Shown here in pieces: positions 1 through 64,000 of a stretch of 64,000 nucleotides of DNA. The position numbers were made by a program, and so were the translations under genes. The stretch's first letter is position 1. Each line of letters opens with the position of its first letter. The notes beneath the pieces are model-generated. The model worked only from the letters and a program-made list of their open reading frames with translations, made no database searches and was not told where the DNA came from. This DNA comes from an uncultured Thermoleophilia bacterium (lineage in GTDB: Bacteria; Actinomycetota; Thermoleophilia; UBA2241): the NCBI GenBank assembly GCA_963814545.1, contig CAWFDC010000014.1:201387-265386 (forward strand). Direction: 5' to 3'.

Positions 1-132
1 ATCGTGCAGCTCCACCGCGGACACATCAGCGCCGACTCGAAGAAGGGAGAGTGGGCCCAGTTCTGCGTCGAGATCCCGGCGACGCTCGAGTGCCCTCTCC
101 CTCAAGCGACCAGTACTGGAGACACCCCATGA
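1..132 (+). CDS. sensor histidine kinase, extreme C-terminus only (gene begins upstream of window)
   Basis: Frame 1 reads IVQLHRGHISADSKKGEWAQFCVEIPATL..., resembling the end of an HATPase_c domain. Its TGA overlaps the hydG ATG (ATGA). Too short for a firm call. Confidence 0.3.
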   Translation: MVQLHRGHISADSKKGEWAQFCVEIPATLECPLPQATSTGDTP

Positions 133-1527
133 CCGTCCCGCAGACCGGCAGCTTCATCGACGAGACCCGCATCGACGAGGCGCTGGGCGCCGCCGCCGAC
201 AAGGACGCGGCGCGCGTCCGCGACGTGCTCGCCAAGGCGCGCGAGCTCGAAGGCCTCGAGCATGGAGGACGTCGCCGTGCTCTCCTCGGTCAGCGACCCG
301 GAGCTGCTCGGCGAGCTCTTCGCCACGGCGCGCGACGTCAAGGACGCGATCTACGGCGCGCGCCTCGTGCTCTTCGCCCCTCTCTACGTCTCGAACCTGT
401 GCACCAACGACTGCCTCTACTGCGCCTTCCGCGTGCGCAACAAGGAGCTCAAGCGCCGCGCCCTGACGCAGGAGGAGATCCGCCGCGAGGTCGAGATCCT
501 CGTCGACCAGGGGCACAAGCGCGTGCTGCTCGTGGCCGGCGAGTCGTACCCGAAGCAGGGCTTCCAGTACGTGCTCGACTCGGTGGCGACGATCTACGAC
601 GTCAAGCGCGGCAACGGCGAGATCCGCCGCATCAACGTCAACGTCGCGCCGCTCAGCGTCGACGAGTTCCGTGCCCTCAAGGCGACCGGCATCGGCACCT
701 ACCAGCTCTTCCAGGAGACCTACCACCGCGAGACCTACGGCGCGGTGCACGTCGGCGGCAAGAAGCGCGACTACGACTGGCGCGTCACCGCCATGCACCG
801 CGCCATGGAGGCGGGCATCGACGACGTCGGCATCGGCGTCCTCTTCGGGCTCTTCGACTGGCGCTTCGAGGTCCTCGCCCTCATGCAGCACATCCGCGAG
901 CTCGAGCGCGCCTACGGCGTCGGGCCGCACACGATCAGCATGCCGCGCCTCGAGCCGGCCATCGGCAGCGACATGGCCTGCGAGCCGCCCTTCCCCGTCG
1001 ACGACGTCGACTTCCGCAAGCTCGTCGCGATCCTGCGGCTCGCCGTCCCCTACACGGGCATGATCATGAGCACCCGCGAGACGCCCAACATCCGCCGCGA
1101 GACCTTCGCCCTCGGCGTCACCCAGATCTCGGCCGGCAGCCGCACCAACCCGGGCGGCTACGTCGAGGACGAGCACTTCGACGAGGCGCAGTTCCAGCTC
1201 GGCGACCACCGGGCGCTCGACGAGGTCATCCGCGACGTCGCCGAGCTCGGCTACATCCCGTCCTTCTGCACCGCCTGCTACCGCCTCGGCCGCACGGGCA
1301 TGGACTTCATGGACCTCGCCAAGCCCGGCGACATCAAGCACCACTGCGACCCGAACGCGCTCTCGACCTTCCTCGAGTACCTGCTCGACTACGGCAGCGA
1401 GGCGACGCGCGCGGTCGGCGAGCCGCTCATCGCGCGCACGACGGCCGCGATGGACCCGGTGCGCCGGGCCCACACCGAGAAGATGCTGGCGCAGGTGCGC
1501 GCCGGCAAGCGCGACGTGCTCTGCTGA
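129..1527 (+). CDS. hydG: [FeFe]-hydrogenase maturase HydG (radical SAM tyrosine lyase), frame-disrupted near 255-265
   Basis: N-terminus MTVPQTGSFIDETRIDEALG...KARELEGLE lies in the frame of ORF 51..1892. ORF 262..1527 continues MEDVAVLSSVSDPELL with the radical-SAM motif CTNDCLYCAF and the C-terminal FeS region CTACYRLGRTG...HHCDPN. Span is 1399 nt (3n+1), so one +1 break. Confidence 0.9.
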
Positions 1528-1631
1528 CGGGTACACTCCGCCGACGGAGGAGCCGTCACTCCGGGCGCCGCGACACGCCGGCCCCGGTCACGACCCGCGC
1601 GAGGCATCGCGCCGACACGACGAGGAGCGAC

Positions 1632-1892
1632 ATGAGCGACGAGCACATCATCATCGGCATCCACGTGAGCGACCGGCTCAAGAACGCCGTCGAGGTGCAG
1701 AAGGTCTTCACCGAGTTCGGCTGCAACATCAAGACCCGCATCGGCCTGCACGACGTGGACGCCGAGGTGTGCTCGCCCAGCGGCGTCGTGCTGATCGAGT
1801 TCTACGGCACGACCGCTGAGGCCGAGGCGATGGCCGCCAAGGTCGGCGCCGTCGAGGGCGTCGACGTGCAGACGATGGTGTTCGGGCACTGA
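1632..1892 (+). CDS. small ACT/NikR-C-like protein of the TM1266 family (putative iron-only hydrogenase system regulator)
   Basis: 86 aa, MSDEHIIIGIHVSDRLKNAVEVQKVFTEFGCNIKTRIGLHD... It sits between hydG and the lyase-like gene, as in Thermotoga-type hydEFG clusters. The family assignment is from memory of that synteny. Confidence 0.6.
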   Translation: MSDEHIIIGIHVSDRLKNAVEVQKVFTEFGCNIKTRIGLHDVDAEVCSPSGVVLIEFYGTTAEAEAMAAKVGAVEGVDVQTMVFGH

Positions 1893-1982
1893 CGACGAGA
1901 GCGCGACAGGGACGGGGCGTCCGCGCCGCCCGCCACCGCGACAGGTGGCGCGCAGGGCACGCCGCCCGGCCCCGGGGGTGAG

Positions 1983-3416
1983 ATGAGCAGCGACGACAGC
2001 CGCATCGAGCGTGACCTCCTCGGCGAGGCGCCGATGCCGGCCGGCGCGCTCTGGGGCGTGCACACGTTGCGGGCGCGCGAGAACTTCGCCCTCGCCGGCC
2101 GCCCCGTGCACGCCGAGCTCGTGCACGCCTTCGGCACCGTCAAGCTCGCCTGCGCGCGCACCAACCGGCAGCTCGGCGCCTGGTCGGGCGACGAGGTCAA
2201 GGCCGAGGCCATCGAGCGCGCCTGCCGCGAGATGGCCGACGGCCTGCTCGACGAGCACGTGATCGTCGACGCGCTGCAGGGCGGCGCCGGCACGAGCACC
2301 AACATGAACGTCAACGAGGTGCTCGCCAACCGCGCCCTCGCGATCCTCGGCGAGCCGCCCGGGAGCTACGCCCGCGTCTCGCCGACCGGCGACCTCAACC
2401 TCCACCAGTCGACCAACGACGTCTTCCCCACCGCCCTGCGCCTCGCCGCCATCACCCTGCTGCACCGCCTCGAGGACCAGGTCGTCACCCTGCAGGAGGC
2501 CTTCCAGGCCAAGGAGCAGGAGTTCGGCCACGTGGTGAAGGTCGCCCGCACCCAGTACCAGGACGCGGTGCTCACGACGCTGGGCCGCGAGATGGGCGCC
2601 TACGCCGAGGCCCTCAACCGCGACCGCTGGCGCATCTACAAGTGCGAGGAGCGCCTGCGCGTGGTCAACCTCGGCGGCACCGCCGTCGGCACCGGCTTCG
2701 CCGCCCCGCGGCAGTACATCTTCCGCGTCGTCGACACGCTGCGCGAGCTGACCAGCGTCGGCTTCGCGCGGGCCGAGAACCTGACCGAGGCGACGCAGAA
2801 CGCCGACGTCTTCCCCGAGGTCTCGGGCATCCTCAAGGCGCACGCCGCGACGCTGCTCAAGGTGGCCGGCGACCTGCGCCTGATGAGCTCGGGGCCCGAG
2901 GCCGGGCTGGGCGAGATCCGCCTGCCGCAGCGGCAGGCGGGGTCGAGCATCATGCCGGGCAAGGTCAACCCTGTGATCCCCGAGGCGGTGACGCAGGTCG
3001 CCCTCCTCGTCATGAGCTACGACCAGACGATCGCCCTGGCGGCGGGGCTCGGCAGCCTCGAGCTCAACCCCTTCCTGCCGCTGATCGCCGTCTGCCTGCT
3101 CGACAGCCTCGAGCTGCTGGCGCGCGCCGACGAGACCCTGCGACGCCACTGCGTCGAGGGGCTCGAGGCCGACGAGGAGCGCTGCCGCGCCCACGTGCAG
3201 GCGTCGAGCGCGGCGGCCACGGCTCTGGTGCCCGAGATCGGCTACGAGGCGGCGAGCGACGTCGTGCGCGCCGCCCGCGAGCGCGGCCTCACGGTCCGCG
3301 AGGTCGTCGTGGGCGACGGCCTCCTGACCGCCGAGCAGTTCGACGAGCTGCTCAGCGCCGAGGCCGTCTGCCGCCTCGGCATGCCCGACAAGCTCGGGCG
3401 CAGCCTCGAAGGGTAA
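1983..3416 (+). CDS. aspartate ammonia-lyase / class II fumarase family protein (HydEFG-associated type)
   Basis: Intact 477-aa ORF with GAGTSTNMNVNEVLANRA and GSSIMPGKVNP signature segments of the fumarate-lyase superfamily. Embedded between hydG and hydF. Confidence 0.8.
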   Translation: MSSDDSRIERDLLGEAPMPAGALWGVHTLRARENFALAGRPVHAELVHAFGTVKLACARTNRQLGAWSGDEVKAEAIERACREMADGLLDEHVIVDALQGGAGTSTNMNVNEVLANRALAILGEPPGSYARVSPTGDLNLHQSTNDVFPTALRLAAITLLHRLEDQVVTLQEAFQAKEQEFGHVVKVARTQYQDAVLTTLGREMGAYAEALNRDRWRIYKCEERLRVVNLGGTAVGTGFAAPRQYIFRVVDTLRELTSVGFARAENLTEATQNADVFPEVSGILKAHAATLLKVAGDLRLMSSGPEAGLGEIRLPQRQAGSSIMPGKVNPVIPEAVTQVALLVMSYDQTIALAAGLGSLELNPFLPLIAVCLLDSLELLARADETLRRHCVEGLEADEERCRAHVQASSAAATALVPEIGYEAASDVVRAARERGLTVREVVVGDGLLTAEQFDELLSAEAVCRLGMPDKLGRSLEG

Positions 3417-3428
3417 GGAGTACGCGCT

Positions 3429-4736
3429 ATGGGCCTGATGGACGCACCTCGCGGCATGCGGCTGCACATCGGCATCTTCGGCCGCCGCAACGTCGGCAAG
3501 TCCAGCCTCCTCAATGCCATCACGCGCCAGGAGGTCTCGATCGTCAGCGACTTCGCCGGCACCACGACCGACCCGGTCGAGAAGCCCATGGAGCTGCTGC
3601 CGCTCGGGCCCGTCCTCTTCATCGACACCGCCGGCATCGACGACGTCGGCGTGCTCGGCGAGCTGCGCGCGCGGCGCACGATGCAGATCTTCGACCGCAC
3701 CGACCTCGGTGTGCTGGTCACCGAGGCGGGCTCGTGGGGCGAGTTCGAGGACGGGATCCTCGACGAGTTCCAGGAGCGCAAGACGCCGGTCGTCGTCGTC
3801 TACAACAAGATCGACCTGAACCAGCACCCGGCCCCGGTGCCGCGCCTCGAGGAACTCAAGATCACCCCGGTGCGGACGCAGGCGAGCGAGGGGCGCGGCG
3901 TGCTCGACTTCCGTCAGGCCCTGCTCGACGCCGCGCCGCCCGACTTCATCGACAACCCGTCGATCCTCGGCGACCTCGTGAGCTCCGGCGAGATGGCCGT
4001 GCTCGTGGTGCCGATCGACAAGGAGGCGCCGCGCGGCCGTCTGATCCTGCCGCAGGTGCAGTCGATCCGCGACCTCATGGACTCGGACGCCATGGCACTG
4101 GTCGTCAAGGAGCGCGAGCTCGGGCACGCCCTCGAGCAGCTCAAGCGCCCGCCGCGGCTCGTGGTGACCGACTCGCAGGCCTTCCTCAAGGTCGCGGCCG
4201 ACACGCCGCGCGACGTACCGATGACGAGCTTCTCGATCCTCTTCGCGCGCTTCAAGGGCGACCTCACGAGCCAGGTCGAGGGCACGCTCGCCGTCGACGG
4301 GCTGAAGAGCGGCGCCCGCGTCCTCATCGCCGAGGCCTGCAGCCACCACCCCATCGCCGAGGACATCGGCCGCGTCAAGATCCCGCGCTGGCTCACGCAG
4401 TACGTCGGCGGCAAGCTGCACATCGAGCACGTGCAGGGTCACGACTTCCCCGACGACCCCACGGGCTGGGACCTCGTGATCCACTGCGGCGCCTGCACCT
4501 TCAACCGGCGAGCGATGCTGGGGCGGATCCTGCGCTGCAAGCAGGCCGGCGTGCCGATCACCAACTACGGCCTCGTCATCGCCTACAGCCTGGGCATCTT
4601 CGAGCGCGCCCTGCAGCCGTTCCCGGCGGCGCTCGAGGCGCTCCGCCAGGCGCGCGAGCGCGCCCTCGAGGAGCACGCCGCGCCGCCGGTCACCGCCGGG
4701 CTGCCCGACGATGTCGCCGTCGACGAGCTGTGCTGA
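3429..4736 (+). CDS. hydF: [FeFe]-hydrogenase maturation GTPase HydF
   Basis: Intact 435-aa ORF. P-loop GRRNVGKSS and DTAG are present. C-terminal cluster-binding motifs EACSHHP ... HCGACTFN (CxHx~50HCxxC). Confidence 0.9.
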   Translation: MGLMDAPRGMRLHIGIFGRRNVGKSSLLNAITRQEVSIVSDFAGTTTDPVEKPMELLPLGPVLFIDTAGIDDVGVLGELRARRTMQIFDRTDLGVLVTEAGSWGEFEDGILDEFQERKTPVVVVYNKIDLNQHPAPVPRLEELKITPVRTQASEGRGVLDFRQALLDAAPPDFIDNPSILGDLVSSGEMAVLVVPIDKEAPRGRLILPQVQSIRDLMDSDAMALVVKERELGHALEQLKRPPRLVVTDSQAFLKVAADTPRDVPMTSFSILFARFKGDLTSQVEGTLAVDGLKSGARVLIAEACSHHPIAEDIGRVKIPRWLTQYVGGKLHIEHVQGHDFPDDPTGWDLVIHCGACTFNRRAMLGRILRCKQAGVPITNYGLVIAYSLGIFERALQPFPAALEALRQARERALEEHAAPPVTAGLPDDVAVDELC

Positions 4737-4772
4737 GGCGTCGCGTCGCGCGCGCATGAGCACCCCGAACGC

Positions 4773-5883
4773 ATGAGCGCCCCGAACGGAGAGAACCCGC
4801 CGCTCGGTGTCGCCGACGCCCTCTCCCGCGCCGCGCTCGAGAGCTGGCTGCGCGAGGACGACCCGGCGCGCCTCGAGGAGCTGTGGTGCGCCGCGGACGA
4901 GACCCGCCGCGACTACGTCGGCGACGAGGTGCACCTGCGCGGCCTCTGCGAGGTCTCCAACGTCTGCGTGCGCGCCTGCACCTACTGCGGCATCCGCGCG
5001 CCCGAACCGCGGCGTCCAGCGCTACCGCATGGAAGCGGACGATGTCGTGGTCTGCGCCCGTCAGGCCCGCGAGTTCGGCTACGGCACCATCGTCCTGCAG
5101 GCCGGCGAGGACTACGGTCTGCCGGCCGACTGGGTCGCCGGTGTCGTGCGGCGCATCAGGGAGGAGACGGCGCTCGCGATCACGCTCAGTCTCGGCGAGC
5201 GCCCCGAGGCCGATCTCGCCGCCTGGCGCGAGGCCGGCGCCGACCGCTACCTGCTGCGCTTCGAGACCTCGGACGAGGGGCTGTACCGGCACATCCACCC
5301 CGACCTGCCGGGACGGGTCAGCGACCGCCTCGCCGACCTGCGCACCCTGCAGCGCCTGGGCTACGAGGCCGGCACCGGCATCATGGTCGGGGTGCCCGGC
5401 CAGACCTTCGCCTCGGTAGCCGACGACATCGACCTCTTTCGAGGGATGGACATGGACATGATCGGCATCGGGCCGTACCTGCCGCACCCGGCGACGCCGC
5501 TGGGGGCGGAGTTCGCCGCCCGGGTCGCCAACGACGACTGGCCGTCCGACCAGGCGCCCAACAGCGAGCTCATGACCTGCAAGGTGATCGCCCTCACCCG
5601 GCTGGTGCGCCCCGACGCCAACCTGCCGGCGACGACCGCGCTCTCGCTCGTCGACAGGGAGGCGGGGCGCTCGCACGGGCTGCGGCGCGGGGCCAACGTG
5701 GTGATGCCGAACCTGACCCCGCCCGAGTACCGCGAGAAGTACGAGATCTACCCCGAGAAGGCCGCCGTGCACGAGACCGCGGAGGCGATCAACGCCAGCA
5801 TCCAGGCGCTGCTGCGCGAGCTCGGGAGGACGGTCGGGAAGGGCGCCGGCGGGCGCGGGCGTACGCCCGGCTCCGGCGTCTGA
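4773..5883 (+). CDS. hydE: [FeFe]-hydrogenase maturase HydE (radical SAM), frame-disrupted near 5005
   Basis: ORF 4773 carries ...CEVSNVCVRACTYCGIRA (CxxxCxxC). ORF 4807 continues RGVQRYRMEADDVV...QAGEDYG...LRFETSDEGLY...GIMVGVPGQT. Span is 1111 nt (3n+1), so one +1 break. Confidence 0.85.
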
Positions 5884-6051: not shown

Positions 6052-7782
6052 TTACGGCTTGATCGGGATCTTGTAGGCCTTGCCGTCGGTCGGCGAGGTC
6101 TGCTCGATACCCAGCGTGCGGAGGATCGTCGGCATGACGTCGGCGAGGCGGATCTCCGCCTTCTTGACGCCCTGGCAGATGCCTGGGTTGTACCAGACCA
6201 TCGGCACGCGCTGGACCTGCCGCTGGTGGCCGCCGTGGTCACCCCAGACCGAGTAGTTCGTGTGGTCGGCGAGCAGCCCGACGACATCCGCCGAGCCCTC
6301 GAAGGCCATCGTGTTGACGAGTTCCTGCCCGTGCAGCTTCCACCACGACTTCTCCGCCGACGTCATCGGCGTGCACGTCCTCCCGGCTCTGAAGACCTTG
6401 TAGCTGTCGTTGTCCTTACTCTTCACGTAGGTCGCGACGACGCCGGGCAGCGTGCCCATCACCTTGGCGGCCGCGATCTTCTTGCTCCAGGACTGGTCGA
6501 TCAGGTAGGTGTGGATGGAGGTCGACTGGTAGCTGAACCTGACGTTGCCGGTCGCCATGAGCGGCGCCAGCGCCGGCGGGCCGTCACTCCAGTTCGGCAC
6601 CATCGGATCGGTGCCCCAGCCGGGCACCCACGCGCCGGCGTACCAGCCGGCCGAGTTGCCGCCGTCGTACACGTTGCTGCCGCCGAAGAACCGCTCGGAG
6701 TCCTGGCCACCGTGGTCGGCCAGCACCACGATGAGGGTCTCCTCGAACTGCCCGAGCTCCTTCAGCTTGGCGATCAAGCGGCCGAGCGCGTTGTCGGCGT
6801 TCTTGGCCGCGAACGGCAGGTGGACCCAGTCGAAGTTGCTGTTCGGGTCCCACGTGTAGTTCAGCAGGTCGTCGACGTCGCCGCCGCCCCACATGTGACC
6901 CATCTTGTCGATGGCGCTGAAGTTCAGGAAGAGGCCCGACCAGTCCTCGTTCTCCATGATGGCCGTCGCCGCGTTGGCGACCCAGCCGTCACCGCTCTCG
7001 CGACCGGCCAGCGTACCGGGGACGTAGCGGCCGTCCTCGTAGTACATCCACGCCGGCGCCGTCGAGGCGGTGCCGTAGTCGTCGCCGACCTTCACGTCGG
7101 AGCTGATGTAGAAGCGGTAGTCCGTCGTGGATGTAGCTCGGGCACGTTGCCGGCGGGCCGCGCCACCGGGCCGGCAACGGGTCGATGCCCATGGGTTCCA
7201 GCACCGCCGGGTCGTTGCTGATGTAGCTGGGCAGGTGCCGTGAGCGCCTTGCGCGAGCCCATGCGCACCCAGTAGTCGGCGTTCGCGGCGGCCATCGACT
7301 CGACCTGGTAGCCCTTCTGGCCGATCATCGCGACGACGGTGCCGGGGAACTTCTCGTGCAGGTAGTCGCCGATCTTCGGGTAGTCGCCGGCCGCCTCGAT
7401 GAGCTTCACGTAGTCGTTGTAGCCGAGGGCGCCGGTCTCGACGATGGCGCCCTCGCCGTAGCCGAGCAGCCCGTCGATGTCACGGATCGCCTCGTCCGAC
7501 CAGCCCATGTGCTTCGGGAACAGGCCGCTCGCGATCACGTTGTGACTGACGACCGTGTCGGACTGCATGTGCCCCACGTAGGCGTTCGGGAAGTGCAGGC
7601 CGTTCTCCTGGAGCCAGAGCACGTTGGTCATGTCGTACTGCTCGGCGTACTCGGGCCGCATCTGGTCCATGACGACGAGGAGCACGCGCGTCGGCTGCTG
7701 CGCGAACGCCGACGCCGGCCAGCACGAGCAACAGCAGGAGCGAGACGAGCAGAAGGATGGAGAGACGACGGACCCTGACCAT
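6052..7782 (-). CDS. secreted alkaline-phosphatase-superfamily phosphodiesterase/nucleotide pyrophosphatase-like protein, multiply frame-disrupted
   Basis: Signal peptide MVRVRRLSILLLVSLLLLLVLAG is followed by LLVVMDQMRPEY, VLADHGGQD and WGDHGGH metal-site-like motifs. The pieces lie in ORFs 7480..7866, 7092..7685, 6989..7204 and 6052..7095, with at least 3 frame changes. Confidence 0.6.
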
Positions 7783-8464: not shown

Positions 8465-8685
8465 GGAAAGGACAGATGCAGTCCTGTATATACCCGGAGG
8501 CTCAAGGGACGAGTTCACCCATACGCTAGGCGCGCAGCCGGGGGCCTGCGAGGATGAGCTGAGCGCACGAGCGAATGGGCTCGGGGCGCACTCAGCGCCT
8601 GGCAGCGGGGCAGCGCCTGCGTCACGAGACCGGCGCCGATCGCCGCCGGTGTATCGTTGGCACCGCCCCGCGGCAAGGAGAGCGC

Positions 8686-9659
8686 ATGCAGGTGCCGATC
8701 GACTGGCTGCTCGACGGTGAGCCCTACGTCAGCTACCGGACGCGACGCGACCTGCTCGGCGAGGCGGCGGGCAGCGGTCCGGTCGTCGAGGCCCGGCGCG
8801 AGATGCTCGCCGACCCGCAGGTCCGCAGCCTCGTCGACGGCCTCGCCGGATGGCCGGGCACCGTCATCGCGAGCCACAAGAGCGCCGGCCAGCCGTTCCA
8901 CCGGCTGACCTTCGTGGCCGACCTCGGGCTGCGTGCCGACGACCCCGGCGTCTCCGAGATCGTCGCCGCCGTCCGCGCCCATCAGTCGGCAGAGGGTCCG
9001 TACCAATTGCCGACGAACGTCCCGCAACGGTACGGGGGGACGGGTGTCGAGACGTGGGCATGGGCGCTCTGCGACGCCCCGCTCCTCGTCTACGGCTGGC
9101 GACCATGGGCCTCGGCGAGGATCCCGGCGTGCGCAGGGCGATGGCGCACCTCGTCGGTCTCGTACGCGAGAACGGCTGGCCGTGCGTGGTCTCGAGGGAG
9201 CTCGGGAGCTTCCGGGGGCCGGGAGCGAAGGCCGATGCATGCCCGTTCGCCACGCTCGCGATGCTGAAGGCCCTCGGCGCGTTTGACGACCTTCGCGACT
9301 CGGAGGCGTGCCGCACCGGCGCCGAGACGCTGCTCGGCCTCTGGGGCGCGAGTCGCGAGCGGCACCCGTATCTCTTCTACATGGGCACCGACTTCCGCAA
9401 GCTCAAGGCCCCTTTCGTCTGGTACGACCTCCTGCACGTGCTCGACGTGCTCACGCGCTTCCCCTGGCTCGCCGGCGACCCGCGGCTCGACGACATGCTC
9501 GACACGCTGACGGCGAAGGCGGACGAGCGCGGGCGCTTCACCGCCGAGTCCGTGTGGGCGCCGTGGAAGCACTGGGAGTTCGGCCAGAAGAAGCAGCCAT
9601 CGCGATGGATCACGCTGCTCTCGTGGCGCATCCTCGGCCGCGCGGCCGCCGGCCGGTGA
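8686..9659 (+). CDS. hypothetical protein (weak resemblance to alpha/alpha-toroid prenyltransferase/terpene-cyclase-like repeats), frame-disrupted near 9100
   Basis: ORF 8575..9267 (from MQVPIDWLLDGEPY) continues in ORF 8850..9659 (...GEDPGVRRAMAHLVGLVRENGWPCV...). The functional call is only by motif feel. Confidence 0.3.
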
Positions 9660-9689: not shown

Positions 9690-11673
9690 TCAAGGCGTGA
9701 ATGAGGCAGGCGTCGGCTCGACCGGGCCGACGCCTCCCCGCGTCCGGCAGGATCGGCTGCTCAGCGGAGGGCCTGCGCGGCTCGCGCCGTGCGCAGCCTG
9801 TCGGCAAGGTCGCAGGCCTCGGCGTACGGCGCCGGCGCCGCTTCGTATCTCGGCGTCGAGGATCAGACAGCGGTCGCTCGCGCGGTCGTACGCGGGCCAC
9901 GAGGGCAAAGCCGCGTCGCTCTCCTCGCCGGCTCCCGACGCGGCGTTCGGGTCGCCGTCGCGGGCGAACGCGACCCAGTAGCGCATCATCGCCTGCGAGA
10001 GCTCGCCGTCTACGCCGCTGTTCACGTCGAGCGCGAGGACCGGGTTGCCGAACACGTAGGGGTATCTCGAGACCGTGGAAGGCGCCGAGGTCGCCGACGG
10101 CCGGAGGCACGCGGGCGAAGTGGTAGAGGTAGGCTGCGCCGCCCGCCTCCGAGACCGCGGCGGCGGCAAAGCGCGCCGGGGCGACGAAGCCCATGACGGT
10201 GACCGCCTTGCTCAGCGCCGCCTTGCGCGAGCCGTGCTCGTCGTCGGGGAAGAGCTCGAGCACGGCGTCGTCGTCGGGCTCGTAGAGGCGGCGCACGTAC
10301 CTGGTCAGTTGCGCCGCCGTCGCGCCCCTCATCCCCAGCAGGAAGAGGTTGGCCTCGTCGGCGTTGGCGCCGACGAGCAGGTCGACGTCGTGCAGCTCGC
10401 CGGCGGCGAACAGCGCCGCCGGGTCGCCGGGCAGCACGACGCCGTCGACGACCGGGACGAAGCCGAGGCCGCCGGGCCCGCGCGGCACGGTGCGCTCGGC
10501 GGCGCGCAGGAGGCGCCCGACGGGGGCGGCGCGCAGCGCCGCGAGCTCGTCGGGCGCCTCGTCGCCGCCGAGCTGCCGCGAGAGCTCGCGCCCCGTCTCC
10601 TCCGCCTCGGCGAGCGACCGCACGGCGTCCATGCCGGCGCCGCTCGAGTCGAACGGGCCGCTCTGCACGATCGCCCGCGCGAAGAGGCCCTCGGCCGGCG
10701 GGCTCACCATCAGGTCGCAGATGCTCATCCCGCCGGCCGACTCGCCGAACACGGTCACGTTCGAGGGGTCGCCGCCGAACGCGGCGACGTTGTCGCGCAC
10801 CCACTCGAGCGCGGCGATCTGGTCGAGGAGTCCGTAGTTGCCCGAGGCGCCAGAGGGATCCTCTTTCGAGAGCTCTGGGTGGGCGAGGAAGCCGAGCGGC
10901 CCGAGCCGGTAGTTGATGGTGACCACGACGGCGCCGAGCCGAGCCAGGTTCCCCCCCGAGTAGACGTCGAGCGAGCCGCTGCCGGTGGAGAAGCCGCCAC
11001 CGTGGATCCAGACCATGACGGGGAGCCGTGGGGCCCCGTCGGCGGCCTGCCCCGCGGCGCCGTCGTCCCCCTGCCCCGTGCTGCCGGCCCCGGTCCCCTC
11101 CGCGACGTCGTCCAAGCCGCCTGCGGCGGCGCTGCGGGGCGTCCACACGTTCAGGTAGAGACAGTCCTCGTCGGTCCCGTCGAGCGCGAAGAGACTGAGG
11201 CCGTCGCCTTGCGGCTGCGGGCACGACGGCCCGTAGCGCACGCACGCGCGGACACCATCCCACGATGCCGGCGCCTGCGGCGGACGCCAGCGCAGCTCGC
11301 CGACCGGTGGCGCCGCGTACGGGATCCCAAGGTAGGCGCGGACGCTGTCGACCTCCGCGCCCGAGATCAGACCTCCGGCGACGCGGAGGACGCCGGGGCT
11401 CTGCGTCGCGGCAGGCTCGTCGCTTCCGCTGCAGGCGCTCACGGCAGAGCCGCCGAGGAGGATGGCCGCCCGAGGGCGGAGAGCCGTGCCGCGCCGAGGG
11501 CGGACCGTGCCGCGCCGAGGGCGGAGAGCCGTGCCGCGCCGAGGAGCATCGGCCGCGTGCGCGCGAGTCGGCGACCGCGAGGCGCGGAGGTTCGCGCGTG
11601 CGCTCTCACCGGGCAGAGGCGGAGCGCTCGGCGGGCGCGTGTCGCGAGTGCGGTCATCGCTGCTAGGGTACAC
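9690..11673 (-). CDS. type B carboxylesterase / para-nitrobenzyl-esterase-like lipoprotein, frame-disrupted near 10070-10170
   Basis: GIPYAAPPVGELRW, WIHGGGF oxyanion hole, GESAGG nucleophile elbow. A lipobox-like ...GGSAVSAC is present. The C-terminus continues in ORF 9690..10169. The true start is uncertain. Confidence 0.8.
11473..11541 (-). repeat. in-frame 24/21/24-bp tandem repeat in the esterase 5' region
   Basis: Encodes RRGTALRP-RRGTVRP-RRGTALRP immediately upstream of the signal/lipobox segment. Confidence 0.7.
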
Positions 11674-14417: not shown

Positions 14418-14567
14418 GGGCTCCTCCTGCTCCGATGACGAGGTCGCGTGCCCAGACTACTCCGTGTCTCGCCATCGGGCCACGTTTCGGGGGTCGCCCA
14501 CGCCTGCCGCGCTGCCGTCGCCTGATAGGCTCGCCCCGAGGACGGGGGCGTACGAGGGAGGTCGACG

Positions 14568-16700: not shown

Positions 16701-16860
16701 GACTCTAGGCCGCAGCGTCAGCGCCGAAGGCGCGCCGCGACGTCACGCGCAGCGGACAGCCGCGCCTCACGTCGTGTCACAGGCCGCGACTCACGTCAGG
16801 GCAGAGGCCGGGCCGAGCCGCTAGGATGCCCGCGAGACCCCACGACGACAGAGGACACCG

Positions 16861-19671: not shown

Positions 19672-19683
19672 TCCAAGGCTCCC

Positions 19684-19768: not shown

Positions 19769-19769
19769 G

Positions 19770-20687: not shown

Positions 20688-20709
20688 GGCGATCGCCTCC
20701 TTCGTCCTC

Positions 20710-41684: not shown

Positions 41685-41694
41685 GGAGGTCTTC

Positions 41695-45062: not shown

Positions 45063-45064
45063 CT

Positions 45065-47505: not shown

Positions 47506-47517
47506 CGGCCGCCGCGG

Positions 47518-48296: not shown

Positions 48297-48319
48297 GCGC
48301 TGGGGGGCGCGTGCAGAGG

Positions 48320-48349
48320 GGTCGGCGGCCGCTCACGCGGCCGCCGACC
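48320..48349 (+). terminator. 13-bp GC hairpin after the zinc-ribbon gene
   Basis: ggtcggcggccgc-tcac-gcggccgccgacc. There is no U-tract, so function as a terminator is uncertain. Confidence 0.4.
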
Positions 48350-48367
48350 CACGCGCCGGTGACGCGG

Positions 48368-51728: not shown

Positions 51729-51982
51729 CTACGCCCTCCGCTTCGACGGTGCATGATCGGCATAGCTTACATCCGGAGGCTACTCGCGATGCCGAGATCT
51801 GTGACCTCGGGAAAGTACGAGTCGCGGCCCACGGATACTACGAGGGGCTCTGCCTCCTCCCACTCCGTCCACCGCGCGGCTGCCGCCCTGTCCTCCCCGT
51901 AGGCCCGCGACGCTTGCCGCCGCCGCGGATTCCACAGAGAATCGTTGGCGGCGAACCCGGAATCCCCGCAAAGGAGACCTCC

Positions 51983-54298: not shown

Positions 54299-55802
54299 AC
54301 GGGACGGCGCGCCGACGCGCCGGTGGCGGCCACGACCATCTCGGCGATGGCGAGGAGACCGGCCTCGTCGCCGTAGCGGCCGACGAGCTGCAGCCCGACC
54401 GGCAGCCCGTCGGCGGTGAAGCCGCAGGGCACGGACATGGCTGGATGCGCGGTGACCGTGATCCGCGAACACGAGCGCATCCAGTCGGTGTACGTCGAGA
54501 GGCGGTGGCCGGCGATCTCATCGACCCACTCCTTCTCGACCGGGAAGGGTGCGACCTGCGTCGTCGGGGCCGCCAGCACGTCGAAGCGCGAGAAGAAGTC
54601 GACCGCGCGCGCGAAGATGGCGGCTTGCTCCGCCTGGGCCGCGGCGATGCGCAGCGGCGTCAGCCGCAGCCCTTGCTCGATGTTCCACACCACCGTGTCC
54701 TTGAGCAGGTCGCGGTGCTGCACGTACTCGTCGTGCAGGGCGCGCACGAAGCTGAGCGCCCTCAGCACCTCGAACACTTCGTCGGCGCCGCGCAGCAGGT
54801 CGGGCTCGGCCTCTTCGACCTGCCAGCCGAGCCCGTCGAGCGCGCGGCGCCCCTCCTCGAGCACCGCGGTGACCTCCGGGGCGACCGGCAGCCCCCCGAG
54901 ATCCCGGCTCCAGGCGACGCTGACGCGCGCCGGCGACCGCGGCGGCGCGAGCGACGGCGGTCGCACCGGCGCCTGTGAGCGCTCGAGCGACGGCAGGTGG
55001 CCCGCCGGCCACGGCGGCGCGAGCGGCGGCAGGTGCGTCAGCGACAGCGGCGCGCGCGGGTCCGGCCCCGCCAGCGCGCCGAGCAGCAAGGGCGACGTCG
55101 GCGACGGTCCGCGCGATCGGCCCCGAGACCGACAGCGGGTCCCAGGCGTCGTCGGCCGGCAGCTCGGGCACGCGCCCCGGCGTAGGGCGCAGCCCGATGA
55201 CGTTGCAGAAGCTGGCGGGGTTGCGCAGGCTCCCACCCATGTCGGAGCCGTCGGCGAAGGGCAGCATGCCGGCCGCGACGGCCGCGGCGCCGCCGCCGGT
55301 GCTCCCGCCGGCCGTGCGCGAGGTGTCGTACGGGTTCCGCGTGGCGCCGAACACCGGGTTGAAGGTCTGCGACCCGGCCCCGAACTCCGGGGTGTTGGTC
55401 TTGCCGACGACGATCGCGCCCGCCCGCCGCAGACGCTGCACGAGCGGCGCGTCCTCAGCCGGCACGTGGTCGCGGTAGATCGGCGAGCCGTACGTCGTCC
55501 TGATCCCGGCCGTGTCCACGAGATCCTTCACGGCGATCGGGAGGCCGTGGAGCGCGCCGAGGTCGTCGCCGCGCGCCCGCCGGCGGTCCGCGTCGTCGGC
55601 GTCGGCGAGAGCGCGCTCCGGGACGAGCGTCGGGATGGCGTTGACCGCGCCGTCCACGTCGTCGATGCGCTGCAGGAACGACGTCGACGACCTCTCTCGC
55701 GGAGACGTCACCGCCGCGGAGCATGGTCGCGAGCGCCGTCGCCTCGAGCTCCCAGAGCTCGCCGCCGTGCGGGCTTCCAGCTCCGCCGCCCCAGCCACGC
55801 AT
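54286..55802 (-). CDS. amidase-signature family enzyme (GatA-like amidase), frame-disrupted (2 breaks)
   Basis: LHGLPIAVKDL and GGSTGGGAAAVAAG...GSDMGGSLRNPA. The pieces lie in ORFs 55455..56522 (tail), 54518..55798 and 54286..55236. Confidence 0.8.
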
Positions 55803-56522
55803 CAGGCCCCCAGCTGGTAGAGCGCAAAGGCGACGGCGAAGCCGAGCACGGCGAGCAGCCCGGCGCTGATGCCGGCGTCCTCCCGAGCCTCGGGGACAAG
55901 GTCGTCGGTCAGCATCGTCAGCAGCGCCCCGGCGGCGAAGGCCTGGGCCAGTGCGCCGATGCGCCCGCTGGCCTCCCCGACGAGCGCGCCCGCCGCCGCC
56001 GCGAGGGCCGCCACGGCGATGACCCCGCCCCACATCAGCAGGATGCGGCCCTTCGCCACCCCGTGCGCGTCGCTGAGCTCCGCCGCCGAGGCCATCCCCT
56101 CGGGCAGGTTGGAGACGATGACGGCAACGAGGAAGGCGGGGCTCACGCCGCCGCCGACGGCAGCGGACACGCCCGAGGATGAACGACTCGGGCACACCGT
56201 CGAGCGTCGCTCCGAGCATAAGCGCGCGGCCGCGCGCGGCGCGGCCCGCCGAGCCGCTCCCGCGGCTGAGGTAACGGTCGCCGGCGTAGTAAGCGAGCGC
56301 GCCGGCGGCCAGGCCGGCGGCGAGCTCGACGGCCGAGGCGAGCTCGACGGCGTCGAGCACCAGTTCGAAGGAGACGGCGCTGAGGAGGGCGCCGGCGCCG
56401 AAGGCGGCCACGCTCCCCACCATCCGCTCGCTGAGGTGGCCGCGCAGGCCGAGCCACGCCCCCACGAGCAGGGGCAGCGCGGCCAGTGCGCCCAGAAGCG
56501 CTGCCGTCAGGACCGTCGGCAC
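55802..56522 (-). CDS. ZIP (ZupT-like) divalent metal transporter, frame-disrupted near 56180
   Basis: MPTVLTAALLGALAALPLL...LDGVPESFILG, then ...VSNLPEGMASA...FAAGALLTMLTDDLVPEA. The stop overlaps the amidase start. Confidence 0.7.
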
Positions 56523-56722
56523 GAGTCACACCTCGCGGTCGAAGCGGCACCCGGCGGCCGACAAGACGACTGCGTCGCCGGGCGCGTCCCATCTCTGCGA
56601 CGAGCATAGTGGTCCGGCTCGGCACGTGTCGAGGCGAGCGGCGCGGCTCCGCCGCGCCGCGAGCCACCGTCAAGCGGATGTACGATGCCGCGGTAGGGAT
56701 CACTACCGATCGAGGAGTGGAC

Positions 56723-56947
56723 ATGGCGGACAGCAGTATGAGAACGCGGGTGGAGCCGGGGCCGGGGCGGTGTACGGCCTCGGCCTGATCGGAGCGCTCG
56801 TCTACTACATCCAGACCGCCACGGGGTTCTGGGACGGCGTCTGGGGCGTCTTCCAGGCCCTGTTCTGGCCGGCGTTCCTCATCTACGAACTGCTGGGCCT
56901 GGTGAGGGCGGAGTGCGCGCGGCGCCGCACCCGCCGAGGACGAGCAC

Positions 56948-56951
<4 letters not shown>
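56723..56951 (+). CDS. possible small membrane protein, frame-disrupted; ends uncertain
   Basis: MADSS... then ...GAVYGLGLIGALVYYIQTATGFWDGVWGVFQALFWPAFLIYELLGLV in another frame. A stop overlapping the OYE ATG appears only in a third frame. Confidence 0.25.
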
Positions 56952-58054
<1,103 letters not shown>

Positions 58055-60061: not shown

Positions 60062-62002
60062 ATGAGAGTCATCGACTGTCCGGTCTGCGGTGCGAAGGTG
60101 AACGCACTCGTGCACCACTGCCCCGAGTGCGGCGCCGACCCGAGACTCGCACGCGAAGAGGCGGAGGCCGACCTGCGGGCGCGCGGCATCGCCCTGCCCG
60201 AAGCGGGACCGCAGCCGAGCGGGCCGGCGGCGGGGGCGGCGCCGGAACGGCTGCGGGAGCGACTCCGGGCAGGCGAAGTGACACCGGCCGCCGGGAGCGG
60301 CGCGGGTCGGCGGGCGCCGCGACCGGCCCGCCGGCGGCACTCCGGGACTGCTGTCGCCGGCGCCCTCCGTCACCGCGAGTCCGGCGGCGTGGCCGGCGGT
60401 GATCGGCGCCGCCCTCTTCATCCTGTGGGGCCTCGAGGCGCTGCCGCTGTGGCTCGCCCTCGCCCTCCTCCTCGTGTACCCGCTCTTCGTGCGCACGGCC
60501 GAGCACCGCCGCTGCCGCGAGCTCGCGGTCGACGTCGACGGCGGGCTCCAGCTCCTGCTGGGCATCGCCGCCGGCGTCATGTGGGTGGTCCTGCCGGCCG
60601 CACTCGGTGGATCGCTCTTCGACGCGACGGTGATCTTCTACCGCCAGCTCTCCGGCGGCGCGCTGCTCGAGCTGGTCCTCGTCGCCGGCGTCTTCGTGCC
60701 GCTGCTCTTCGGCCTCGTCTTCCGCTACCTGGAGCTGCGGGCCGGGAGCTGGTGGGCGCTCGCCCTGGTGACCGCGGCCTACGTGACCGTGGGTATCGTC
60801 GCCGAGCAGGGGGTCACCCTCTTCGGCGTCGCGTGGACGGCGCTCGCGGCGCTCGTCTACGCCCTCGCGTACCTGTCGACCCGTCGCCTCTGGCTCCCCA
60901 TCGGGCTGCGTGCCGGAGCCGCGCTCCTCGTCACCGACGCGCCCGTGTTCGGCCTCGACCTGCTCAAGGTCGCCAGACCCGACCTCGTGGGCCCGGACGC
61001 GACGCTGCACCTCGCGCTCCTCGGCGTCGCCGTCGCTCGTCATGCTCGCGGTCGCCCTCCGGCGCGGCGCCTTCGTCGGGCGCCGCCGCGCCTGGCACGC
61101 GCAGACGGGCCGCCCCCTCGCCTCTGCGGGCTGGGCGGCCTCGCCGTGGCCGCAGGCCGGCCTCTGGGCGGCGCTCGGCTGCGCCGCGCTCCTCGACGGC
61201 ATCTACTGGTACACCGGCGGAGACTGGTTCTGGCTGGCGCCCGCCGTGCCCCTCACGTACTGGGCCTACGTCCGCTTCGTCGAGCGGCGGACCTGCGTCG
61301 AGCTCGGCGGCGGCCTCCCGCGGGCCGTCGGCGGCGGTCGTCGCCGGTGCGGCGGCGGGGTTCGTGCTCAGTCTGCTCACGTGGTTGCCGGCTGCGGGCC
61401 CCTTCGCGGAGGGAGGATTCCTGGCGCCCGACGCGCTGACCGCCGAGCTGGTCGTCGCCACTCTGTTCTGGGCGCTCTGCGAGGAGGTCATCTGGCGGGG
61501 GCTCCTGCTGCGGTCGCTCGAGACCCGTTTGGGGAGCGGGCTGGCCCTGGTCGTCACCGCGCTGACGTTCGCGGTGTGGCACTGGCGGTGGGACTACTAC
61601 GCCCTGCTCGACCTGACCGTGGCGGGCGCGCTGTTCGGGGCGCTCTTCCTGCTGACCCGACGCGTCTGGCTGTCCACCGGTGTCCACACCGGGTGGAACC
61701 TCGCCCTCTGGGCGTGGACGGAACCGGAGATGTGGTGGTCTGCCACGTACGAGCTCATCCTGATGCTGGAGGGCGCGGCGATCCTCGCGGCGCTGCTGCT
61801 GGCGCGTCAGCGCGGGAGGCTCGTGCGGCGGCCCCGGGGCGGAGTGGCCGCAGCGCCGACGCCGATGACGCCGGCCGTCGCCGCGGCTGTGGCCGCGCCC
61901 GTGTCGGCCGGCGGCCTCGAGCCGCTGCCACTTCCGCCGCCGCCTCAGCCGCCGCCGCTGGGACCTCCGGGCGCGACGGCGCCGGAGGGTCAGACGTCGT
62001 AG
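60062..62002 (+). CDS. membrane protein with N-terminal zinc ribbon and CPBP (CAAX/Abi) intramembrane glutamic-protease domain(s), frame-disrupted (3 breaks)
   Basis: MRVIDCPVCGAKVNALVHHCPECG. Multi-TM region in ORF 60399. C-terminal CPBP motifs CEEVIWRG (EExxxR), FAVWH (FxxxH) and GVHTGWN. Frames run 2->0->1->2. Confidence 0.65.
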   Translation: MRVIDCPVCGAKVNALVHHCPECGADPRLAREEAEADLRARGIALPEAGPQPSGPAAGAAPERLRERLRAGEVTPAAGSGAGRRAPRPARRRHSGTAVAGALRHRESGGVAGGDRRRPLHPVGPRGAAAVARPRPPPRVPALRAHGRAPPLPRARGRRRRRAPAPAGHRRRRHVGGPAGRTRWIALRRDGDLLPPALRRRAARAGPRRRRLRAAALRPRLPLPGAAGRELVGARPGDRGLRDRGYRRRAGGHPLRRRVDGARGARLRPRVPVDPSPLAPHRAACRSRAPRHRRARVRPRPAQGRQTRPRGPGRDAAPRAPRRRRRSSCSRSPSGAAPSSGAAAPGTRRRAAPSPLRAGRPRRGRRPASGRRSAAPRSSTASTGTPAETGSGWRPPCPSRTGPTSASSSGGPASSSAAASRGPSAAVVAGAAAGFVLSLLTWLPAAGPFAEGGFLAPDALTAELVVATLFWALCEEVIWRGLLLRSLETRLGSGLALVVTALTFAVWHWRWDYYALLDLTVAGALFGALFLLTRRVWLSTGVHTGWNLALWAWTEPEMWWSATYELILMLEGAAILAALLLARQRGRLVRRPRGGVAAAPTPMTPAVAAAVAAPVSAGGLEPLPLPPPPQPPPLGPPGATAPEGQTS

Positions 62003-62048
62003 CCGGACGCGCCGGCGCCCGCGGCGCGGGCGCTCGGGCGCCGTCGAC

Positions 62049-62708
62049 TCAAGCGTCGCCCGGTCGCTCGCCGGCGCCCGGCTCCAGTCCGCGCGCCAGG
62101 ATCTCGAGGGCGGCGGCGCCCGGCGCCGGGAAGTCCCCGGGGCCGGGCAGGCGCTCCTGCATGGCGCGCTGCATGCCGTTCGCGAAGGGCACCGAGACCA
62201 CCACCGCGGCGGCCTCGAGCACGTCGACGTCGCCCCTGACCCTGCCGCGCTCCTGCTCCGCCCGCAGGTAGGCGGCGACGACCGCGACCGGGCCTCCCTG
62301 CAGGCCCATCGGCATGCGCTCACGGATGTAGACCTCGAAGCGCCGCGCCATCTCGGGGTCGGCCCAGATCGACGCCGTCAGCGACGTGGTGTGCTCGATC
62401 ATGCCGCTCAGGAGCTGCAGCAGGCGCTCGAGGTTCTCGCGCACCGTGCCCCGGCCGGCCCTCTCGGAGAAGTGCGCGAGCTCCTCGACCGTGTCGCCGG
62501 CGACCGCAAGGAACACCTCGTGGAAGAGCGCGTACTTGTCGTCGAAGTGCCGGTAGATGGTCCCCTCGGCCACGCCGGCCGCCTGCGCGATCTCCTTCGT
62601 CGTCGCGCGCGCGAACCCACGCTCGAGGAACACCCGTGTGGCGGCGTCGATCAAGACCTGGCGGGTGTCCGTCTTGCGTGGCGTCTTCTCCGCTCCGCCG
62701 GCGTTCAT
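62049..62708 (-). CDS. TetR/AcrR family transcriptional regulator
   Basis: Intact 219 aa with HTH ATTKEIAQAAGVAEGTIYRHFDDK. Confidence 0.85.
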   Translation of the reverse strand: MNAGGAEKTPRKTDTRQVLIDAATRVFLERGFARATTKEIAQAAGVAEGTIYRHFDDKYALFHEVFLAVAGDTVEELAHFSERAGRGTVRENLERLLQLLSGMIEHTTSLTASIWADPEMARRFEVYIRERMPMGLQGGPVAVVAAYLRAEQERGRVRGDVDVLEAAAVVVSVPFANGMQRAMQERLPGPGDFPAPGAAALEILARGLEPGAGERPGDA

Positions 62709-62798
62709 CGGTCCTCCTCCCGAAGGTCGCCCCCGGCTGCGACGGGGCGACCGATCACTGCCCGGTCCACGCCGTCCCCGCGCACGCCGCGTCCCGGT

Positions 62799-63592
62799 TC
62801 ACGCCGTGATGTCGCGGCGCCAGAACGTGATCACCGTCACCGCGAAGGCGACGACGACATACCCAGCGGAGACGACGGCGGCGGCGGCGAAGGTCATGTC
62901 GGCGGTCCCCCCCGTGGCGATGGCGCCGAACGCGGCGCCGGGCAGCCACTTGGCCGTGCTGTCGAGGAGCAGGCTGAGCACCCCCTCGAAGACGAGCAGA
63001 TACCCGATGCCGATGGCGATGGCGATGCCCGTGCTGCGCGTGATCATGCCGACGAACAGGCCGACGACGCCCCACAGCAGTACCGAGAGGGTCAGCTGGA
63101 CGTAGCCCTCGACGACGGTCCGCAGCAGGTCGGTCGTCCAGGCGTCGGTGCCGACCCCCGCGGTCTCGGCGATCGGTGGGGCGACGGCGAGGACGACCGC
63201 CGTCGTCACCAGCGTTGCGAGGCAGGTGAAGCGCGGTCAGCGCCACGACCTTGCCGGCGAGCAGGCGCCAGCGGCGGGGCTCGGCCTGCACGAGCAGCCG
63301 GATGAGCCCGCTCGAGTAGTCCGAGGTGACGGCGATCGCCCAGACGGTGAGGGCGACGATCCCCAGCATGCCGACGAAGTTCTGCAGACCGACGAACATG
63401 CCGTCGCCGGCCTCGAGCATGGCCACAGTCACGCGGTCGGCGCCGGGTGGCCCGTGAGTCACCCCGCTGGTCGCCGTGACAAGCACGATGGCCGTCGCCA
63501 GGAGCGCCGAAGAAGACCATGAGCCCGATGCCGCTGAGGAGCGTCGATGGGTTCCTCAGGCGGATGAGCTCGCTGCGGACCGCGCGGATCAT
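62799..63592 (-). CDS. ABC-2 type transporter permease, frame-disrupted (2 breaks)
   Basis: MIRAVRSELIRLRNPSTLL... is followed by about 6 TM segments spread over ORFs 63206..63592, 62755..63486 and 62799..63209. The start overlaps the ATPase stop. Confidence 0.65.
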
Positions 63593-64000
63593 GACGACAC
63601 CTCGGTCGGCGCGGGTCTCTCCGCCGCCGCGACGAGGCCGTCGGCGTCGGGCGCCGCGGCCGGGCGCCCGTTGTCGCCCGACTGCTCGCCGGTCATGCGC
63701 AGGAACACCTCTTCGAGGCTCACCTCGTGCGGGCGCAGCGCGCTGAGCGTGATGCCCGCCTGCGCCGCGGCACGGTTGACCTCGGCCGACGTCGACGCCG
63801 GCGCGGTGACCACCACGCGGCCGTCACCGACGCGCGCCGGCCAGCCGGTCGACACGAGCACCGCTGCGAGGCGCTCGACGTCCTCGAGGTGCTCCGGCAC
63901 GGCCGCGATGCACTCCCCCGCCTGGGCGACCAGCTCGCGCAGGGGACCCGAGAACAGGAGTCCGCCGTGGCGGATCATCACCAGCGTGTCGCACGCGGCC
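63589..64000 (-). CDS. ABC transporter ATP-binding protein, C-terminal part (5' end outside window)
   Basis: ...DTLVMIRHGGLLFSGPLREL... is typical of the post-H-loop region, followed by a C-terminal regulatory-like domain. It is followed by the ABC-2 permease. Confidence 0.6.
   Translation of the reverse strand, partial: AACDTLVMIRHGGLLFSGPLRELVAQAGECIAAVPEHLEDVERLAAVLVSTGWPARVGDGRVVVTAPASTSAEVNRAAAQAGITLSALRPHEVSLEEVFLRMTGEQSGDNGRPAAAPDADGLVAAAERPAPTEVSS

Follow-up and report, generated by a model that had tools for sequence, protein, structure and literature searches.

Frame breaks in a 64,000-nucleotide stretch of an uncultured Thermoleophilia genome are very probably artefactual one-base insertions in the assembly consensus

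Introduction

Mass pseudogenisation during reductive decay is familiar from Mycobacterium leprae and from recent host-restricted symbionts, and indel (insertion and deletion) errors in the consensus of long-read assemblies, which fragment gene calls, were reportedly the subject of work by Watson and Warr in 2019. Here we analyse the frame breaks in a 64,000-nucleotide stretch of DNA (the window) from an uncultured Thermoleophilia bacterium, in which many conserved genes, including [FeFe]-hydrogenase maturase genes and members of two Mvh/Hdr-type clusters, switch reading frame part of the way along. The window is C14:201387–265386 of a genome of 2.72 Mb in 22 contigs, with 71% G+C and an estimated completeness of 76.6%. 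Two described phenomena come closest to what is seen. Consensus indels in long-read (Nanopore or PacBio CLR) genomes and metagenome-assembled genomes (MAGs) cause frameshifts (Sereika et al. 2022, PMC9262707; bioRxiv 10.1101/2021.08.23.457338, proovframe), and collapsed strain heterogeneity is addressed by strain-aware tools such as Strainberry (PMC8302730).

The frame breaks of the window share with long-read consensus indels their private, single-base character, their number of hundreds to thousands per genome, the splitting of genes into collinear fragments, the lowering of marker completeness despite contiguity and their absence from the short-read-style assemblies of relatives. They differ in that emphasis in the literature falls on homopolymer-associated indels (PMC9262707), whereas the window insertions avoid runs, outnumber deletions by about 7:1, are clustered, lie at variable sites and often duplicate an alternative allele. 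As in collapsed strain heterogeneity, the errors are found at polymorphic, mostly third-codon positions, are clustered and spare the conserved rpoB gene; a collapsed consensus, however, is usually a mosaic or carries the majority allele, whereas the window shows an extra base. A tandem writing of both alleles was not found stated in the papers on consensus errors and strain collapse that were consulted. Reductive decay also leaves many genes interrupted among intact neighbours, but its mixed lesions (stops, deletions and insertion-sequence elements), its deletion bias, its eroding codon signal and its sparing of indispensable genes have no counterpart here. The assembled sequences thus point, with high confidence, to artefactual one-base insertions, and a small number of deletions, that entered the consensus of a contiguous and presumably long-read MAG. 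The genes of the organism itself are almost certainly intact.

Materials and methods

The window contains 331 open reading frames (ORFs) of at least 60 residues, and because long ORFs occur in every frame of such GC-rich DNA, ORF lists alone cannot show frameshifts. Frame junctions were called by three independent approaches, namely reference-free frame tracing, DNA comparison with five relatives and protein-level tblastn. Frame tracing used a codon log-odds model trained on 813 long ORFs of the same genome and a Viterbi path through seven states (six frames and noncoding) with in-frame stops forbidden; a switch from frame k to k+1 along the coordinate denotes one extra base on either strand.

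The five relatives belong to the same genus and are designated G007 (20 contigs), G012 (7 contigs), G010 (430 contigs), G009 (300 contigs) and G004 (60 contigs). Nucleotide identity to the window is approximately 88–95% for G007, G010 and G009 and approximately 75–83% for G012 and G004. Positions 1–64000 of the window correspond to G007:C21:284900–364899 in G007, and the homologous region of G012 lies on G012:C5. The DNA of the relatives was rebuilt from three-frame translations (stops given as X) by codon-constraint propagation and was verified against a direct six-genome alignment. Raw blastn gap lists proved too noisy (499 gaps against G007 that were not a multiple of three) and were replaced by offset changes between well-matched ungapped blocks, clustered across relatives. 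For the protein-level search, uninterrupted coding segments of G010, G009, G004 and G012 were compared with the window by tblastn. Relatives and tblastn together separate true gene boundaries from frameshifts. Expectations for the inserted bases were obtained from 5000 simulated random insertions that were processed identically.

Results and discussion

In the window, the Viterbi frame caller placed about 50 switches directly from one frame to another on the same strand, and those with an upstream frame open for hundreds of bases were mostly of the one-extra-base type. Comparison with the relatives resolved two classes of event. One class has the same sign in all covering relatives, whose own frames are unchanged, and is specific to the window; the other, of about 130 events seen against G007 only, represents insertions specific to G007. 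In local multiple alignments each window event appears as one surplus base, and tblastn reproduces the junctions as collinear high-scoring segment pairs in different frames, adding four (esterase 9846, photolyase ~11899, phosphodiesterase ~7127 and ~7185). This gives a tally of 41 junctions that change the frame, spread over 23 genes, with 36 classed as +1 and five as −1; the initial annotation, made from the letters alone, had counted about 36 gains of one nucleotide and about five losses among 41, and the count from relatives and tblastn arrives at the same numbers. One base is missing from genes at 9093, 21590 and 57553, and from a small ORF upstream of an old-yellow-enzyme gene at 56740; the fifth −1-type junction is an 8-nucleotide insertion at 57738–57752. 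Altogether, 34 single-base insertions and three single-base deletions were mapped to the base, each absent from one to five covering relatives and all except that at 61329 absent from at least two, while the other junctions are supported by a single reference or by the net frame offset. Every junction that could be polarised is missing from the one to five relatives covering it, in which the reading frame continues unbroken, and the comparison with closely related genomes that the initial annotation had proposed turned out in favour of its artefact reading.

Removal of the 34 extra bases and addition of the three missing ones brought the Viterbi path into a single frame for nearly every affected gene. 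We re-translated 24 gene models, of which 19 were fully joined and five (photolyase, HypE, the old yellow enzyme, the second endopeptidase region and the antitoxin/vapC region) were joined by stitching over a switch or gap that remained. None of the 24 contained a stop codon, in agreement with the initial claim that in-frame stops do not accompany the breaks. Pfam searches with 20 of the 24 corrected models gave matches for 17, many spanning the whole domain. Downstream of the breaks the codon-usage signal persists in the shifted frame, and large deletions were not seen. The initial list of affected genes stood up with the exception of vapC, where the product has no PIN-domain match and no usable reference exists; the present analysis adds two genes, MvhD (broken at 30473) and one for a conserved protein of unknown family (at 9093), as well as a second break each for the esterase (9846) and the photolyase (~11899).

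The inserted bases carry a signature of their own. An inserted base extends a run in only five of the 34 cases (15%), compared with 17.9 (52.7%) expected (P = 5e-6), and no run longer than three is involved. The adjacent alignment column is polymorphic among the relatives at 20 of the 34 sites (12.8 expected, P = 0.01), and at 14 of them the inserted base equals the allele of some relative at that column (4.3 expected, P = 3e-5). At 15139, for example, the window reads GC, against C in G010 and G009 and G in G007, and the same holds at 27687, 29532, 31103 and 63504. G007 shows this signature still more strongly: among its 120 analysable insertions, 67 match the alternative allele (P = 3e-29) and 92 lie beside a polymorphic column (P = 5e-18), with a depletion in runs as well (P = 5e-8). 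The third codon position is touched at 16 of 18 unambiguous window sites, against two thirds expected (P ~0.03 by a binomial estimate). C and G predominate among the inserted bases. An association with the methylation motif GATC was not supported, either in the window (8/32 within 8 nucleotides versus 12.9% expected, P = 0.058) or in G007 (19/121 insertions within 8 nucleotides, P = 0.34), and a search for a shared slippery or quadruplet motif returned 24 different four-base words at 28 sites, none occurring more than twice. The suggested link of junctions to homopolymer or GC runs is therefore contradicted by the significant avoidance of run extension, and an origin in uncorrected random single-molecule read noise, which the initial annotation had favoured, fits poorly with errors that sit at sites variable among relatives and often copy the alternative allele.

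The pattern extends throughout the genome, for which the number of frameshift-like switches is estimated at about 1000, with 831 shifting by +1 and 169 by −1. The total is approximate because the reference-free caller yields false positives, at least one such switch (C4:20269) being, by eye, the boundary between FtsW and MurG genes. Switches that resemble true gene boundaries have the opposite bias (139 of type +1 versus 314 of type −1), as expected from ATGA-type overlaps, and the +1 asymmetry is thus not a property of the caller. Essential genes are affected: secA, gyrA, dxs and glyS, each single-copy in the assembly, are split across two frames, as is leuS, and in stitched SecA, LeuS, GyrA, Dxs, GlyS and GcvT one NCBIfam alignment spans each junction. 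Splits in single-copy secA, gyrA, dxs and glyS would be incompatible with a living cell if they were real. In the window, insertions outnumber deletions by approximately 7:1, and 4/35 polarised insertions are noncoding, compared with 9.4% expected by length (P = 0.57), so that coding sequence is not depleted. The events are clustered, with a variance-to-mean ratio of 3.1 genome-wide (5-kb bins) and 1.95 in the window, and the 3.8-kb rpoB gene is intact in both error-rich assemblies, that of the source genome and that of G007. A second, divergent LeuS-like sequence, 46–67% identical to the main leuS over the matched region and spread over three frames, is present at C10:37760–38701.

Frameshift density follows assembly type and not phylogeny. 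Per 10 kb of coding sequence, the number of private indels that change the frame is 30.5 in G007, 2.9 in G012, 0.26 in G010 and zero in both G009 and G004. In G007, which is 77% complete, 121 one-base insertions and 19 deletions are private, counted over about 46 kb of aligned coding sequence. Its errors are about four times as dense as those of the window and bear the same tandem-allele signature; in the homologous region the private insertions of G007 occur about once per 350 nucleotides. Even G012, the best long-contig genome of the genus (95% complete), carries errors: over 31 kb of coding sequence, six insertions and three deletions are private and change the frame. Apart from G012, few-contig genomes of the genus are mostly 57–77% complete, compared with 80–97% for the many-contig ones, as broken marker genes would produce. 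Three frameshifts that appeared common to the window and G007 (15888, 31117 and 32431) were considered as systematic or ancestral events and rejected as chance coincidences, about three of which are expected at one G007 insertion per ~350 nucleotides; at 15884 the insertion of the window and that of G007 can be seen to lie 20 nucleotides apart. The initial reading of an artefact, as opposed to decay, is accordingly borne out by private junctions, density by assembly type, split essential genes, the lack of other lesions, the excess of insertions and the failure of coding sequence to be spared.

As to how the extra bases arose, the sequence pattern makes a collapse of strains likely, although with less certainty than the artefact itself. 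Reads of closely related, co-occurring strains would have been merged into one consensus, and at variant sites both alleles would have been written in tandem, giving one extra base and a +1 frame shift. Conserved genes such as rpoB offer few variant sites and would collect few errors, which under this model accounts for the sparing of rpoB. A plainer account, which we consider rather unlikely, holds that the insertions are random errors left over from noisy single-molecule reads, where coverage was low or polishing was omitted, and are unrelated to strain variation. Errors of this kind would equally be dominated by insertions, genome-wide and confined to few-contig assemblies; 20 of the 34 window insertions lack a two-allele pattern, and the predominance of inserted C and G is expected from a G+C content of 71%. 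However, random insertions would extend a neighbouring base more than three times as often as is observed and should show no preference for polymorphic columns or alternative alleles, of which there is a marked excess both in the window and in G007, and the strong clustering, with rpoB untouched even at the density of G007, also argues against randomness. Several observations count against our preferred explanation as a whole. The pattern differs from classic Nanopore consensus error, which is found at homopolymer sites and tends to deletion, and the allele signature is incomplete, given the majority of window insertions in which it is missing. The sparing of rpoB shows that the errors are far from uniform, and selection would also spare a key gene. 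MvhG, the sole gene searched for in other assemblies, has no copy there above 95% identity, the best being 94%. Finally, the evidence comes from assembled sequences, relatives and protein families, and bears only indirectly on whether the DNA molecules carry the extra bases.

If the indels were instead real, recent mutations, the [FeFe] maturases and one Mvh/Hdr operon would have been lost in a large-scale pseudogenisation. The indels are indeed present in the deposited sequence, are lineage-specific and clustered, and leave some key genes such as rpoB alone. Against this stand the splits in single-copy secA, gyrA, dxs and glyS, the lack of nonsense codons and large deletions, the codon bias kept past the breaks and the equal involvement of coding and noncoding DNA. 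Bacterial mutation usually shows a deletion bias and slippage in runs, the opposite of the ~7:1 excess of insertions and the avoidance of homopolymers seen here; moreover, about 130 different insertions private to G007 lie in the same 52 kb, against none in the many-contig relatives, and the inserted bases copy alleles of other species, which is unlike a mutation process. We therefore regard pseudogenisation as highly improbable. A variant in which the insertions are real products of faulty heteroduplex-mismatch repair, retaining both alleles in short tracts where diverged strains recombine, would fit the tandem-allele, run-avoiding and clustered pattern and assumes a population carrying many defective alleles; the breaks in single-copy secA, gyrA, dxs and glyS, and also the confinement of the pattern to few-contig assemblies, render it very unlikely, and less credible still than simple decay. 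Least credible of all is that the cell decodes the +1 sites by programmed ribosomal frameshifting or quadruplet decoding, such that the genes are functional as written. Nearly all shifts are +1 and the downstream frames are open and conserved, as such decoding would have it, but the sites have no common four-base motif, are absent from relatives at 92–94% nucleotide identity, recur as the same insertions in intergenic DNA and number about 1000 in unrelated places of the genome.

Consensus error thus remains the preferred explanation, and there is no new biology in the frame breaks. Their consequences for annotation are considerable. Gene callers would fragment the genes or call them pseudogenes, and by extrapolation from ~1000 switches in ~590 gene chains roughly a fifth of the genes of the genome would be affected. 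Completeness is underestimated (76.6% for 22 contigs), and metabolic reconstruction would wrongly infer an inactive HydG, an inactive HydE and one inactive Mvh/Hdr hydrogenase–heterodisulfide reductase cluster; on the sequence evidence, both Mvh/Hdr clusters and the [FeFe] maturase genes should provisionally be treated as intact. For quality control, the point is that frameshifts in few-contig MAGs of this genus are mostly insertions at variable sites and not homopolymer errors. Homopolymer-aware polishing would leave them in place, whereas strain-aware consensus, short-read polishing or homology-guided frame correction would remove them.

Affected genes and their surroundings

The [FeFe]-hydrogenase maturase cluster occupies 106–5850 and consists of a HydG-type gene, a small ORF (1627–1889), ORFs 1983–3416 and 3429–4736 and a HydE-type gene. 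The HydG-type radical SAM gene (106–1527, + strand) has one +1 junction, an extra C at 261 (GAG[C]ATGG) that is missing from G010, G009, G007 and G012 (GAG-ATGG) in both the six-genome and the local alignments; after correction, Radical_SAM and BATS lie in one frame. The HydE-type radical SAM gene (4756–5850, + strand) likewise has one +1 junction, an extra G at 5004 that the same four relatives lack, and tblastn splits the gene at 5002. The two ORFs between them bear out the initial remark that neighbouring genes are intact, as does a 2.9-kb single-frame coding stretch at 23712–26569. ORF 1983–3416 (477 residues, intact) contains the fumarate-lyase/aspartase signature GSSIMPGKVNP, recognised by motif, and ORF 3429–4736 (435 residues, intact) presumably encodes HydF, as judged by recognised sequence motifs.

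Further along, a phosphodiesterase/alkaline-phosphatase-superfamily gene (6056–7715, − strand) has two +1 junctions, near 7127 and at 7185–7236. A continuous segment of G010, the only relative that aligns well, is divided by tblastn into three collinear pieces in three frames, and the Pfam Phosphodiest family matches ORF 7092–7685 at positions 2–61 and ORF 6052–7095 at positions 147–224. The conserved protein without a Pfam family (8678–9653, + strand) has one −1 junction at 9093–9096, where the window reads GG and both G007 and G010, with unbroken frames, read GGG. Two extra T residues, at 9846 and 10063, give the +1 junctions of the type-B carboxylesterase (9782–11466, − strand), and correction of the latter restores COesterase 4–494/515 in one stretch. 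The deoxyribodipyrimidine photolyase (11737–13346, + strand) has one +1 junction near 11850–11948 and a net +1 in 12689–12735, a length-variable linker; the exact bases of both are left as ranges. Offsets across this linker are −62, −5 and −41 nucleotides against G004, G009 and G007, respectively, all equal to +1 modulo 3. The splits are seen by tblastn with G009 and G004 segments, and DNA_photolyase and FAD_binding_7 were matched.

The short-chain dehydrogenase (14566–15281, + strand) is interrupted by three +1 junctions, 14635 (T), 14748 (C) and 15139 (G), all absent from the five relatives, and the corrected protein matches adh_short_C2 6–234/236. It is followed by a pyridoxal-phosphate-dependent decarboxylase of the Orn/DAP/Arg type (15335–16658, − strand) with two +1 junctions, a G added to GG at 15884–15886 and an A added to A at 16284/16285, neither present in G009, G007, G004 or G012; its corrected form matches Orn_Arg_deC_N 5–246/247. 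The arginase/agmatinase-family gene (16886–17812, + strand) has a single +1 junction, an extra C at 17190 that G007 and G009 lack, and yields Arginase 3–279/280 when corrected. The HypE hydrogenase maturation gene (21164–22267, − strand) has one −1 junction at ~21582–21590, where G007 has one more base and segments of G004 and G012 show the −1 shift by tblastn; the stitched protein matches AIRS and AIRS_C.

Two separate Mvh/Hdr-type clusters are present in this one Actinomycetota-like genome, at 27526–34358 (− strand) and 39879–50425 (+ strand). Cluster 1 comprises genes for a HycI protease, MvhA, MvhG, MvhD, HdrA, another gene (32956–33815) and an HdrC-like protein, and carries 13 insertions. 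Its HycI-type hydrogenase maturation endopeptidase (27526–27977, − strand) has one +1 junction at 27687/27688, where the window has GC and the relatives have C or G, and after correction matches HycI 3–127/130. The MvhA-like [NiFe]-hydrogenase large subunit (27978–29465, − strand) contains two +1 junctions, at 29198–29201 and at 29383, where the window reads CGTTC[G]ACGAAG and four relatives are without the G; both extra bases are absent from G010, G007, G004 and G012, and NiFeSe_Hases was matched. The same four relatives lack all four extra bases of the MvhG-like small subunit (29466–30430, − strand; 29532, 29880, ~30191 and 30265–30269). Corrected MvhG (320 residues) aligns at full length with thousands of intact homologues, the closest being ~323–325 residues long, with 99–100% of corrected MvhG aligned and up to 94% identity. 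MvhD (FlpD; 30431–30931, − strand) has one +1 junction, at 30473, where G010 and G007 lack the extra base, and matches FlpD 2–123/123. This is the only junction at which the insertion itself makes a stop: near the 3′ end it converts TAC to TGA on the − strand and trims the C-terminal tail of MvhD relative to G010 and G007. HdrA-1 (30963–32910, − strand) has +1 junctions at 31103 (GC in the window, C or G in relatives) and 32434, where G010, G004 and G012 lack the extra bases; at or beside both sites G007 shows an additional base that is peculiar to it. The HdrC-like ferredoxin subunit (33816–34358, − strand) has one +1 junction at 34280–34285 and matches Fer4_17 and Fer4_8.

In cluster 2, where two HdrA paralogues are accompanied by further genes, only two insertions occur. 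The first HdrA copy (39879–41681, + strand) has a +1 junction at 41052–41054, where G010 and G007 are one base shorter and the difference to G012 is −2, equal to +1 modulo 3; the second copy (42860–44623, + strand) has a +1 junction at 43773 (GG to GGG), absent from G010 and G012.

Towards the end of the window, the amidase (54317–55769, − strand) has two +1 junctions, 55088/55089 (A added to A) and 55685, and on correction matches Amidase 1–445/445 in one stretch. A ZIP-like membrane protein without a Pfam match (55803–56486, − strand) has an extra C at 56170 (+1) that is absent from G010 and G007. Five junctions affect the small upstream ORF and the old-yellow-enzyme-type flavin oxidoreductase (56715–58051, + strand), namely 56740 (−1, in the upstream ORF), 57388 (+1), 57553 (−1), 57738–57752 (+8) and 58025 (+1); comparisons with G010, G009 and G007 concur on all of them apart from the +8, which is not seen with G007, and the corrected enzyme matches Oxidored_FMN 1–339/342. 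The 8-nucleotide surplus relative to G010 and G009 lies in a length-variable stretch of the enzyme where the insert of G007 is much longer, and may combine a real in-frame length difference with one base error. The CPBP (Rce1-like) membrane protease (60397–61927, + strand) has two +1 junctions, 61035 (absent from G010 and G009) and 61329 (absent from G009, the sole covering genome), and Rce1-like was matched. Both extra bases of the ABC-2-type permease-like membrane protein (62806–63618, − strand; two +1 junctions, 63233 and 63504–63506) are absent from G007 and G009. Four single-base insertions of the same kind are intergenic (16858–16860, 30917, 51963–51968 and ~56688–56707).

For the vapC frameshift, neither candidate fragment matches a PIN domain in Pfam, and no reference genome covers the region. 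A FitA-like ribbon-helix-helix antitoxin is encoded at 20427–20795 on the − strand (Pfam PF22513, E = 2e-9), and the C-terminal part of the ORF downstream of it (19860–20369, − strand), although without a Pfam match, looks PIN-like by eye. The largest noncoding stretch of the window (19131–19845) holds three tRNA genes, for tRNA-Met (CAT; 19131–19207, − strand), tRNA-Tyr (GTA; 19684–19768) and tRNA-Thr (GGT; 19770–19845).

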